Shown here one piece after another: positions 12,658 to 63,912 of a DNA stretch of 64,000 bases (positions are counted from its first letter, which is position 1; each line of letters opens with the position of its first letter). The stretch lies in the NCBI GenBank assembly GCA_964016885.1, contig OZ024740.1, positions 216,752,001 through 216,816,000 on the forward strand, written 5' to 3'. Below the pieces are notes generated by a model. That model was given only the letters and a program-made list of their open reading frames with translations, had not been told where the DNA came from and ran no database searches. The stretch comes from Eledone cirrhosa. Taxonomy: Eukaryota. The translations under genes were made by a program, and so were the position numbers.

Positions 12658-12658
<1 letters not shown>

Positions 12659-12860
12659 TTTATTCTGGGTTGAATCGGAGGTAACCACAGTAAGTAAGGT
12701 ACTCAATACATTGCAGAGTATAAAAGTTTTAATATAGATGAGATTCTACAGGACTAGAACTGTCTCATTCTTTAGAAATCATCAGGAATCTGATTCCTGA
12801 TGATTTCTAAAGAATGAAACAGTTCTAGTCCTGTAGAATCTCATCTATATTAAAACTTTA
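12658..12860. mobile_element. Palindromic Penelope-pLTR/retrozyme-like element, family A, copy 1
   Basis: Near-perfect inverted arms centred on 12791; flanked by (TA)n; tail motif gtactcaatac. Confidence 0.75.
12792..12840 (+). ncRNA. Type-I hammerhead ribozyme, family A
   Basis: GATTC-CTGATGA-tTTCtaaaGAAt-GAA-ACAG-ttctagtc-CTGT-A^GAATC; all three stems pair; GUA cleavage triplet. Confidence 0.8.
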
Positions 12861-12871
12861 TATATATATAT

Positions 12872-13063
12872 ATTTAATAAAGAAAAGGCTTCTACAGGAC
12901 TAGAACTGTTTCATTCAGGAGAAATCATCAGGGCTTCCTGATGATTTCTCCCGAATGCAACAGTTCTAGTCCTGTAGAAGCCTTTTCTTTATTAAATATT
13001 TATACTCTGCTTTGTATTGAGTACCTTACTGTGGTTACCCCTGATTGAACCCGGGATAAACTT
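12872..13063. mobile_element. Palindromic element, family A, copy 2 (opposite polarity)
   Basis: Inverted arms meet at ~12932; plus-strand hammerhead at 12932-12982 (GGCTTC/GAAGCC stem I; GAAA mutated to GCAA); tail gtattgagtaccttactgtggttacccc. Confidence 0.75.
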
Positions 13064-17201: not shown

Positions 17202-17253
17202 ATATATTATATATATGTCTACAGAACTAGAACTGTTTCAATACTTACTAAAA

Positions 17254-17465: not shown

Positions 17466-17539
<74 letters not shown>

Positions 17540-17590
17540 CTACAGAACTAGAACTGTTTTAATACTGAAAGGATATATATATATATTCTT
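16498..17590. repeat. Imperfect (TA)n array with small embedded element fragments
   Basis: Seen directly; family-A scraps 'tctacagaactagaactgttt' at ~17218 and ~17539. Confidence 0.95.
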
Positions 17591-30698: not shown

Positions 30699-33134
30699 AG
30701 TATACAGTTATTAATAAGAAGAGTTAAAATTAATATATGCAAGATTTCACAGCTCTAACATCAATCCTTCATAGTGAGCCTATCAATTTTTCAGTCAACA
30801 ATCATATGTTAGGTTTGAACATGTCCTCTATTGACTATACCATCTTGTACTGACATTTTTGAGAGGTAACAAGCAACAATAATTTCATGACTAGATACTT
30901 GATGGTAAATCTAGTTGTCACATTATTGACAACAATGTGATTAGCTTCAACATGGACTATTTTGATTGTATTGAAGTCTACAAACAGTAATTACTGGGAA
31001 CATGTCTTTGTTTTTACTTAAGATCTACCCTGTTTTTATTTTTGTAATTCACAAATGGAATAAAAAAAAGAAATGTTTTCTGAAATCTCAAAGATTAGTC
31101 CACCTTCGTTAGGAGTGGTAGTAATGACTTTTGATATTGCTAATTGTTTTTTACAGAAATCTGTCTGTGACATCCTTTGTTGAGGGGTACACACCTTGAC
31201 AATGTACAGGTATGAATGTTTGTGTTTGTGAAGTTGCTTTAGAAAAAATAGATAAATGAACAAATATGTGTGGTAGCGTGTGTATGTGTGTGAGCATGTA
31301 TGTGTTCATGTGTGTTTGTGCTTGGTTTCTATCAGCATTTTATCATGAACAGCAACTAATGTTAAAATGTAGTGTTAGTTGTTTAAATAGTAACATTTCC
31401 AGATTGGAAGTTAAATTGTACTAACTCATGATTCTTTAGTGAAGTACAAACAATTCTAATATCTTACTAATTTTAAACCTGCTACTAAGAAAGAAAGAGC
31501 TAAATGAAAATGTGAGTGGATAAAGTGTTTGAATGATGAGCCAAAAGTCATGAGTTCAAATCTTGTTAAACATTTTTTTCTCCTTTTTGCTCCCTACTAG
31601 CAAAAAAAACCTAGGCAGAAATCAAAATAAAGGGGCTCTTTCAGGTGTTTTTGCTGAAAATGGCCATCTAAATATTATTACCTGTCTATTCCAATAATTT
31701 ACACAGAAATCAATAAGGAGAAGCAGGAAATTCTTTCTTAGTTTACACTATTCCATTGAAAATAGGAGAGGCCACATTATGAAATGTACTCTGAGAGACA
31801 TTGTGCTTGGTAAAAATAAAAGAAGTGTTCAGATGATGTCATTTGATTATAAATCTGTTTGGTCAGAGCTGAGCTAAGACTGAACAGCAATAATTATTTG
31901 TACAATACAAGATAAACTGTTGTAGTTTGCTTGAAGCATTCTATATAATATATAATGTGGAAAGTGATATATGTACGAAGGCTAAACAATACGAAATGGA
32001 CAGTAAGATGCAAGCAATGAAAAAGTTTAGTTACCTGATAATCTTTGTTTGTTTTTTTTTTTTTGTTTCTTTCTTCCTAATATTTCGAGACTTAAAATTC
32101 CCTTCTTCAGAGTTTAAGGAACTCTCAGAGAAAGAAAAATGATCCAGTCTCTTCTCTTTGAAATTAGATTTAAATCTGAAGATATTCTTTTTTTTAATGT
32201 TTGAACCTTGTATGAAAAAATATTAATAAGATATGCAGAATCCTACTCAGAAACGTGTGTATGTGTATGTGGAAACAGATTTGCATTATTATTATTATTA
32301 TTATTATTGTTAATTATATCTAAAGATAATCACTTGAGTTCACCAGTTATTGTTATTGCCATTTTTAACATTATTGTAAATAATCATATTTTTGTTGCTG
32401 TTGTCTTTTTATCCTCTCTCATTTAATTTCATTTCTGATTTTTAACTTCATTTTTCTATTATTTAATGGCTCACCTCTGTGAATATCTAATAAAGTGTAT
32501 TTGTTATATATTGAACATGAGAAATGATTAATTTAAGTGGAAGAAGACTTGTTAAAAGAACCCAATGTGTCTTTTGCTGCTATTTTAGGATGATAATTAA
32601 CCTCTCAACAACTACATAACTCTATTAGTTATTCCACAATCTCCAATCTTTGACGTCGCTAGCTATTTCCTCTGTTTCCTCTTGAGGTAATTGCTGAAAA
32701 TTAATTATTGATATCAAATGTTGCTGCTGCTGTTGTTGTTGTTATTTATTTCTATCAAAGTTTTTCACTATATATCTTGATCTAAAGACATAACATTGTT
32801 TCTATTTTTGTAATGAAATAAATTAATGTTGTGCTGGAATTTCTTTTGCATACATAATACAGGTGTCGTTGTTTTAAATTGTGCTTTTGAAATGGGAAAG
32901 GTATCCAAATTTGGCTCTATCTCTTAAGTGTAGAATTGATATGCTGACTTTAATAATGTATTTTATGATTTATCATGAGTTGTTTCTAAATTTGTGAGAA
33001 ATGAAATTTATTCAACTGCACCACCATTTCAACATATATTTCATCTGACTTATTAACTGGTAAGATTGTTTTTAATTAAGTACTAGTTAAAACAAATGAG
33101 GATCTTGATATATATATATATTTAATATAGAGAT

Positions 33135-33185
33135 GACTTCTACAGGACTAGAACTGTTTCATTCAGGAGAAATCATCAGGAAGCC
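33135..33185 (-). ncRNA. Type-I hammerhead ribozyme, family A (intact core)
   Basis: GGCTTC-CTGATGA-tTTCtcctGAAt-GAA-ACAG-ttctagtc-CTGT-A^GAAGTC (G.U wobble in stem I); flanked by (TA)n. Confidence 0.8.
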
Positions 33186-33618
33186 CTATATATATATATA
33201 TAATTGTTGTGGGATGCTTAAAGCATCCGTAAGCAGTAGGCTGTTTGAGCACTCGATACTCTTACAGAGCAGAGTATAATATCACATAAGAAACAGAGAA
33301 TCAGTGTTGCGACGAATAAAATTTTGGAAACTCTGCTTCGTAGAATCGAGGCGTATTTGAGGAACTTGCGATTTCAGAGTCAGGTTCGATCATTGTATCG
33401 ATCATGCCTCGACGATTGTAATATGTCTTATAAATTTTATTCGTTGCAACAATGATTCTCCGTTTCTTATGTATATATATATATATCCAGGGAGTGTATA
33501 TATATCTGCGGGTGAAGAAATATTAGTATCCTGACACTTCTAAGCATGTGCGTTGTATATAAGCACACTATCCATTTTTTTTATTAAGCTGAGAAGTGGA
33601 CAGGATACTAATATTTCT

Positions 33619-35194: not shown

Positions 35195-35504
35195 TAACCA
35201 AAGAGTGCTTAAAAATACATTGTTTTATTAGCTGACAGTGTTTCATCCATACCCCATGGCAGGAATCATCAGAGCCTATAAACAAGAGTATATCAATAGG
35301 TGCATGCTCCATCAAGCTGCGTCACCAGAACAAGGTTAAAAGACCCCCTTGCTGCTCCTTTAACCTTGTTCTGGTGACGCAGCTTGATGGAGCATGCACC
35401 TATTGATATACTCTTGTTTATAGGCTCTGATGATTCCTGCCATGGAGTATGGATGAAACACTGTTAGCTAATAAAACAATGTATTTCTAACCACTCTTTG
35501 GTTA
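35195..35504. mobile_element. Palindromic element, family E (~145-bp arms)
   Basis: Arms 35195-35340 / 35358-35504 with a ~17-nt loop; a hammerhead in each arm; flanked by (TA)n. Confidence 0.78.
35230..35276 (-). ncRNA. Type-I hammerhead ribozyme, family E
   Basis: GGCT-CTGATGA-tTCC..GGAt-GAA-AC-act-GT-C^AGCT; plus-strand twin at 35423-35469 has GUU. Confidence 0.72.
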
Positions 35505-35809: not shown

Positions 35810-36332
35810 ATATTGTTATACTTTGGGAGGGTCATGTTGCCAATAAGAAACACACGCACCAGATGCTTTCACTTCAATTTATTATAATAAATTTATAAAT
35901 TTATAAATTTCTGGTTGGTTGGTTGGTTCCACAACCAGATAGTTGTTTATATATTGTCATAGTTCTTTCGTCACACTCTGTGACCTCTTCAGTGACTGGG
36001 GATGCTTTTCTTTGTTTTTTGTGCCTCTCCTTTGTTCTGTCCTACGCCATTTTGTTTCTGTGTGTGTGTTGTGAGCACACAACATACACACAGAAACAAA
36101 ATGGCGTAGGACAGAACAAAGGAGAGGCACAAAAAACAAAGAAAAGAATCCCCAGTCACTGAAGAGGTCACAGAGTGTGTGACGAAAGAACTATGACAAT
36201 ATATAAACAACTATCTGGTTGTGGAACCAACCAACCAACCAGAAATTTATAAATTTATAAATCTATTATAAATTGAAGTGAAAGCAACTGGTGCGTGTGT
36301 TTCTTATTGGCAACATGACCCTCCCAAAGTAT

Positions 36333-38012: not shown

Positions 38013-38172
38013 AGTATGGACATGTGATGCTTATGAATATTAAGAGTCCTGATAGTAAGAGGTGTTAAACTTATGTATGTGTGTGTGTGTATCCCGGGTT
38101 CAATCTGGGGTAACCGCAGTAAGTAATGTACTCAATGCATAGTAGAGTATATAGAATATTTAATACAGAAAC

Positions 38173-38224
38173 GGCTTCTACAGGACTAGAACTGTTTCAT
38201 TTGAAGGAAATCATCAGGAAAGCC
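38173..38224 (-). ncRNA. Type-I hammerhead ribozyme, family A, within a longer element (~38090-38375)
   Basis: GGCTtTC-CTGATGA-tttccttcaaat-GAA-ACAG-ttctagtc-CTGT-A^GAAGCC; same tail as 12980-13060. Confidence 0.72.
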
Positions 38225-38561
38225 CTGATTAGTACTGAAACTGGACTACTGACCTTCCAGACAGTCTAGGGATCTGTTATCTTGCTTATGCACATTCTAC
38301 CAAGTGTACAGGAGAGGTTGTCATGTCTTCAACACTCCTAAACTTTCCCCCAACCCTTTGTTTGGCAAACAAGTATATATATATATATGACGAGATTTTA
38401 ATATATCTCATATAAAATAATACAGCCGATTATCCACACAATACAATATAGTTAGCACCCCAAACGTTTAATTGGGAATATACTCCGATATTTCCTAATG
38501 TTTGTTGAGTGAGTTGGAAATTGGTCGGAGTATCGCTAATAGCTTTCTCCGTTTATGTAGT

Positions 38562-63420: not shown

Positions 63421-63747
63421 CATCATTCATCATCATTTCATTTTACGTCCGCTTTTTCCCTGCTTGCAAGGGTGAGACGGGAACTGATTCTGGCTTGATT
63501 TCTACAGCCTGATGCCCTTCCTAACACCAACCTCATTTACAGTGAGTGCTGGGTGCTTTTTTGCCGTGGCACCTCCACGACCACTTTGCAGTGGAATGAT
63601 ATGGACCTCAGTCCCTAACACCTCATTTCTACAGCTGAGTAAACTGGTGCAATGTGAAATAAAGTGTCTTGCTCAAGGAAACAACACATCACCCGGTCTG
63701 AGAATTGAACTCACAACCTTTCGATTGCAAGGCCAATGCAGTAACCA
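63421..63747 (-). mobile_element. SINE S2, head cut by a family A element
   Basis: Matches 34428-34760; junction at shared 'taaccac'. Confidence 0.88.
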
Positions 63748-63912
63748 CAGTAAGTAAGGTACTGAATACATTGCAGGGTATGAATATTTAATGTAGAAAT
63801 GGCTTCTACAGGACTAGAACTGTTTTATTCGGAAGAAATCATCAGGAAGCACTGATGATTTCTCCTGAATGAAACAGCTCTAGTCCTGTAGAAGCCATTT
63901 CTATATTAAATA
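63741..63912. mobile_element. Palindromic family A element
   Basis: Inverted arms meet at ~63851; minus hammerhead 63801-63850 (GAAA to AAAA) and plus core 63852-63896. Confidence 0.75.

Follow-up and report, generated by a model that had tools for sequence, protein, structure and literature searches.

By its sequence, the family A motif is a type I hammerhead that lies within the pseudo-LTR (pLTR) of a Penelope-like element (PLE), and its cleavage is predicted. We consider it very probable that this identity holds and that the fold was under selection in the source elements. Along the source line, stem I appears to have swapped three matched pairs, and the elements likely needed the hammerhead, for which cleavage in dimeric form is predicted. 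Selection on the fold in active source elements had been proposed in the first-pass annotation of the window (the whole 64-kb stretch of DNA that was analysed), and three compensated pairs together with an unchanged core and unchanged stems II and III bear this out. The motif is also, as claimed there, no chance match, since the exact 25-nt core has 28,397 matches in the 3.0-Gb genome, a count inflated by passenger fragments amplified in other repeats, and the reversed control has 0. Such decayed family A fragments, passengers of other repeats with common flanks, lie in L031, L036-L038, L044, L052 and L291-L315.

Family A copies in the window

The segment 12658-13062 holds four family A arms, which form two head-to-head pairs in a single (TA)n array (Table 1). 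Hammerheads had been reported within 12792..12982, correctly, but as two copies rather than four arms. The stem I strands read earlier at 12792-12840 (GATTC/GAATC), 12932-12982, 38173, 63801 and 33135 (with G·U) are as stated; the stem itself, drawn with 5 bp, is 6 bp long. In copy 12792 the first base of stem I was lost where the inverted arms join; it survives in the partner arm (12791, minus strand). Copy 38173 has one extra U in stem I, and this 1-nt bulge, taken for a one-off, is a subfamily trait. The G·U of copy 33135, earlier called tolerated, exists and probably arose by C to T mutation once the copy had inserted; it fits decay of this kind, as the partner arm still has C in A2a loci that share the change (L529, L531). 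The catalytic core (CUGAUGA, GAAA and UA, the UH cut site) is present in copy 12792 and in 8/8 subfamily majorities, and is broken in the decayed copies 12932 and 63801 and in arm 12791. Judged by their bases, the hammerhead cores of copies 12932 and 63801 are dead, a decay of genomic copies. The three C-G copies of the window, initially treated as separate, go back to one inherited event, and the window as a whole holds one event and two subfamilies. Its evidence is weaker than it had appeared: for one compensated event given two stem changes the chance is ~0.035.

Table 1. Family A arms and associated features in the window
Feature	Position	Strand	Remarks
A1 long arm	12658..12791	-	Hammerhead from 12791 down to 12741; 6-bp stem I complete; GAAA changed to GAGA; tail ~85 nt with (TA)n at its end
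A1 short arm	12792..12858	+	Hammerhead with intact core; pair 4 is A-U; predicted cut 12835/12836; first base is one below the inferred start site
(TA)n target array	12859..12872		Separates two independent insertions
A2a short arm	12873..12931	-	Core intact; 5' strand of stem I lost at the junction
A2a long arm	12932..13062	+	Hammerhead 12932-12982; pair 4 C-G, pair 6 G-C; core A to C at 12958, GCAA replacing GAAA
Tail hairpin of A2a long arm	13030-13062	+	Reaches the end of the arm
A2a-type solo short arm	33120..33186	-	Inside (TA)n; G·U at pair 5; 3' end approximate
A3 long arm (older bulged subfamily)	38091..38225	-	One stem II pair broken
A2a long arm	63738..63851	-	GAAA changed to AAAA; distal end shortened
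Short partner arm of copy 63801	63852..63911	+	Head-to-head; 3' end approximate

Other hammerheads are found in the window as well. A second family forms a head-to-head inverted pair at 35227-35480 (cores at 35272, minus, and 35427, plus) and has a long stem II; a third, with the core CUGAAGA and a minimal stem III, forms an inverted pair at 35900-36270 (35992, minus, and 36159, plus). Short fragments resembling stem III of family A, without the 5' core, lie in (TA)n at 17215-17250 and 17535-17575.

Matched changes in stem I and constraint on the fold

Copies for the covariation analysis were chosen by promoter base and core only, blind to stem I; 119/124 had a gap-free core, and the 5/124 with core indels were left out. 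At pair 4 (n=119) we find C-G in 81 copies, A-U in 21, A·G in 2, C·U in 3 and other combinations in 12. The double change between A-U and C-G is thus real genome-wide, and independent segregation of the two changes, which the first-pass annotation had named as speaking against its reading, is confined to 5/119 crossed combinations. Pair 6 (n=119) is A-U in 66 copies, G-C in 40, G·U in 6, A·C in 3 and something else in 4, and column 7, which adjoins stem I on the outside, is variable and unpaired (n=119). In the genome-wide family A alignment, 29 cells among 70 distinct rows are changed on both sides, every one in pairs 4 and 6, compared to 9.9 cells in shuffles, an excess inflated by the kinship of the copies. 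One step of the analysis drew on 90 of the 118 references, unbulged and mostly with a single arm for each locus. The closing of the ends by stem I is supported by this covariation. In the older subfamily (loop ATAC or ATAT), pair 5 is A-U with an A bulge in 8/12 copies; 3/12 have G on the 5' side and 1/12 is too decayed for reading. A tree of 77 long copies, built with the stem I columns removed, forms one ladder, albeit a weakly supported one (1/73 inner branches reach at least 95) whose order depends on the chosen root; on a single ladder, every stem I swap counts as one event. The chance that six or seven random stem changes include three compensated pairs is 0.001-0.008. As aligned, stem I carries no more than three independent matched swaps, at pairs 4, 5 and 6, each a single event, a small number that tells against our reading. 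Coincidence between two subfamilies, which would differ at two positions that pair by accident while the motif rides along, is barely credible: it could account for the single event of the window, and Craig et al. (2021, PMC8557442) suggest that hammerheads may merely parasitise PLEs, but it would have to cover three events and sits poorly with column 7, which varies outside the stem without pairing. Pair counts, pair 5 of the older subfamily and the invariant columns effectively refute it.

Outside stem I, core and stems are constant between subfamilies. The 8 subfamily majorities differ in 0/35 columns of the core and stems II and III, compared to 4/4 columns of loop II and 40/88 variable tail columns (p 7e-8 for the tail), an invariance that is partly built in, because the core-based copy search would miss subfamilies with an altered core. 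All single-stranded catalytic positions (CUGAUGA, GAAA, UA) belong to the invariant set, and stem and loop III are invariant to the same degree as the catalytic core. The variation described earlier for the stem II loop is real, with tcct and ttcc more likely products of decay. Within 110 copies the change rates are 2.7% at catalytic positions, 4.0% at other core-region positions and 4.3% in the tail, and inserted copies thus largely decay. We conclude from these alignments that selection on the hammerhead fold acted in the source elements, while genomic copies decay. The tail-end hairpin of long arms adds a matched change of its own: genome-wide (n=132), one pair is U-A in 78 arms, C-G in 27, C·A in 12 and U·G in 3, a compensated swap from C-G to U-A at the proposed long priming site. 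Template switching across the stem I inverted repeat during cDNA synthesis might produce matched swaps without selection, and junctions with copying between the stem I strands do occur (L004, L208, L211, L220, L226). As a full account this is quite improbable; it leaves both the unchanged 35 columns outside stem I and the matched change of the tail hairpin unexplained, and compensation is found in 0 of the pair 3 variants in L111-L140.

Stems II and III pair in 96% and 95% of cells, respectively, with zero both-sided changes (70 distinct rows); their pairing is compatible with the data rather than proven. All subfamilies have U·U at the place of the usual G10.1-C11.1 closing pair, which is highly conserved according to Cervera and de la Pena (2014, PMC4209133). 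The repeat hammerhead of L003 has the U·U variant there, too. The cut is predicted between A17 and G1.1. An Rfam scan (E up to 1) contained no hammerhead model among the 150 matches listed of 267; those listed were microRNA-like and came from palindromes only. Folding of the monomer is uninformative, as shuffles do just as well (z -1.1 to +0.3). For the dimer, the predicted minimum-energy fold is a double hammerhead (-21.2 vs 2 x -5.7 kcal/mol), with dimerisation predicted via the palindromic loop of helix III. Dimer-cleaving hammerhead variants have reportedly been described by Lunse et al. (cited in PMC6765202).

The route of the pair 4 swap can be traced. Among exact genome-wide copies with loop TCAC, 375 have C-G, 12 A·G and 4 C·U, and the A-U-type 3' strand occurs in 72; the 12 vs 4, taken alone, is not significant (p 0.08). 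A·G is carried or fitted by both arms in 4/5 two-arm loci, two of the four fitting partner arms bearing a further change at that site, while C·U is common to both arms in 0/3 loci, and most A·G loci resemble the earliest A-U copies in promoter background. From this arm sharing and promoter background we infer a path from C-G via A·G to A-U, in which the mismatch form would have been briefly active as a source element. An intermediate that still transposed is a point against our preferred explanation of a selected hammerhead fold, and so is the report that hammerhead mutants of the PLE PAc (Poseidon, Anolis) had no effect on insertion in vitro (Frangieh et al., 2024, PMC11167929). A G·U intermediate at pair 6 was considered as well and is unsupported (8 vs 3 control changes in 100, p 0.23); the C is mostly retained in partner arms.

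The host element and how its copies may arise

The host of family A is an endonuclease-bearing (EN+) PLE, a known class that the first-pass annotation had not named. In L077, a hammerhead and its tail precede the ORF P0001, which has 713 codons counted from its first ATG, 130 nt behind the core; after the ORF come a 3' region rich in microsatellites, CCAAT and TATA boxes and another hammerhead. In L051, L069 and L436, promoter, hammerhead, tail and ORF follow each other in an unbroken series. The P0001 protein reads with the RT motif YRDDG, a Cys-rich linker (C-x-C-x5-C-x5-C) and a YIG motif. The Pfam GIY-YIG model matches it weakly and below the cut-off (E 0.019), searches of PDB and NCBIfam gave no match, and in the Atlas it scores 0.96-0.98 to clusters with GIY-YIG, RVT_1 and HTH_animal. 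The EN+ traits found are a single RT and GIY-YIG ORF, a pLTR with hammerhead, an inverted 5' copy, a one-end tail and a (TA)n target. By its Cys-rich linker, the element may be Neptune-like. Other PLE families, with 35-52% amino-acid identity to P0001, occur in L162, L455, L176, L349 and L063.

Most arms (179/263) are head-to-head, and 70/77 pairs consist of one long and one short arm, both apparently of one subfamily. With the first base of stem I as +1, the 68 A1 arms divide as follows: ~31 terminate at 0 to +7, ~23 retain the promoter, ~10 end further downstream and just 3-4 lie between, six rows having been reassigned by eye and the query-chosen L001-L030 left out. In 91/119 promoter copies there is a TATA box at -29 to -32, and the hammerhead begins ~30 nt below it, at the pile-up of short-copy 5' ends. 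We infer that +1 is the Pol II transcription start.

The base before the cut site is present in 12,767 A1 tails and absent from 167, of which about half are truncations (14/29 sampled), so that tails starting at the cut site would make up about 1%. Truncations fall at the cut site in 14/29 cases vs 5/30 at the next base (p 0.013) and 18/30 one base upstream, with microhomology inflating these numbers. A clear peak of copies at the cut site is absent; neighbouring positions give similar numbers. As ~99% of A1 tails keep the pre-cut base, the templates were uncut or rejoined RNA. This retention also suits a fold kept for a non-catalytic role, such as protein docking, RNA dimerisation via the palindromic loop or initiator overlap, with cutting unneeded. 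Stem and loop III being as invariant as the catalytic core points the same way, as does insertion of PAc without cleavage (PMC11167929). We nevertheless regard a purely non-catalytic role as unlikely: the invariant set extends to every single-stranded catalytic position, uncut and rejoined RNA leave an identical trace, and the PAc hammerhead cleaves once protein is added (PMC11167929).

We propose that the protein nicks both (TA)n strands and primes reverse transcription at two internal sites, ~+141 (the hairpin end) and ~+55 to +70. Internal priming on both nicked strands has been described for PAc (PMC11167929) and would account for there being a long and a short arm. If the RNA is linear and capped, the two cDNAs would end by run-off at the cap and be joined head-to-head into dead 140-nt copies; the head-to-head junction is then the trace of this run-off. 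Copies that retain the promoter would have to come from a template in which promoter sequence precedes the hammerhead, either a circle or a tandem read-through RNA. Inserted 3' copies terminate at or before the tail hairpin; should the protein, like that of PAc, depend on sequence past the hairpin, promoter-containing copies again call for a circle or a tandem transcript. Our tentative first choice is a circle that forms when two dimerised hammerheads cleave and the RNA is rejoined; a tandem read-through RNA, with cleavage as mere trimming, comes second and is doubtful. The predicted double-hammerhead dimer favours the circle proposed in PMC4209133, and our data do not separate circle from read-through. 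A more speculative form of the circle model takes the hammerhead to be the 51 nt at the 5' end of the mRNA, with the sole full priming signal just behind it, so that linear RNA would yield only dead 'strong-stop' 140-nt copies and the element would reproduce only after dimerisation of its two hammerheads, cutting and rejoining into a circle.

Relation to known systems

Hammerheads in PLEs, their dimers and covariation, inverted copies, tails and (TA)n targeting have been published (PMC4209133; PMC8557442; PMC6765202). Compared to the PLE hammerheads of PMC4209133, family A has a short helix II of 3 bp with U·U for G10.1-C11.1, a helix I of 6 bp and a stem III of 4 bp with an 8-nt loop, and the order of its changes, including an intermediate, is resolved. 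With PAc it appears to share an internal RT start at two sites within a stem-loop close to the ORF start, nicking and extension of both strands, an AT-rich target and uncut RNA as the main substrate (PMC11167929). However, the PAc hammerhead overlaps the start codon and its tail has 30-40 bp, whereas that of family A begins at the inferred start site, ~170 nt ahead of the ATG, and the two ends are ~70-85 nt apart. As in Neptune/Nematis-type EN+ PLEs (PMC8557442), there is an RT with a C-terminal GIY-YIG and a Cys-rich linker, an inverted 5'-truncated copy, a one-end tail and a microsatellite target, although the P0001 linker spacing is not the literal CX2-5CxxC. Promoter and start site lie in the pLTR as in the Penelope of D. 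virilis, whose promoter is TATA-less and internal (PMC2377424), while that of family A has TATA and CCAAT boxes upstream and is LTR-like. Non-LTR retrozymes likewise carry a type I hammerhead, are PLE-related and, like the family A copies, non-coding (PMC7229834; bioRxiv 10.64898/2026.07.22.740005). They are head-to-tail tandem units; family A, with 179/263 arms head-to-head, consists of dispersed head-to-head fragments of a coding element and has one tandem derivative, in L335 (minus strand, ~1000-1500), where a 221-nt unit combines hammerhead, tail and ORF start. This tandem is possibly a young retrozyme derived from the family A PLE. Retrozyme-like repeats of 310 bp, head-to-tail and with another hammerhead in each, occupy L003 1-1400.

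Within the texts covered, our literature search found nothing on family A, no hammerhead at a TATA-driven start site and no recorded mismatch intermediate; the hammerhead alignments of PMC4209133 and the PLE lists of PMC8557442 are supplements where family A may already be recorded. The role of the hammerhead in endonuclease-bearing PLEs has been called unclear and possibly parasitic (PMC8557442). An unchanged core and three compensated pairs in one source line are evidence at the genome level for a requirement in vivo. The circle model is directly testable, since the family offers an intact ORF, naturally occurring mismatch and rescue variants and a sharply defined 5' boundary. If it is true, the genome would hold tens of thousands of abortive products, and the path from C-G via A·G to A-U would be a stepwise fossil record of ribozyme repair.
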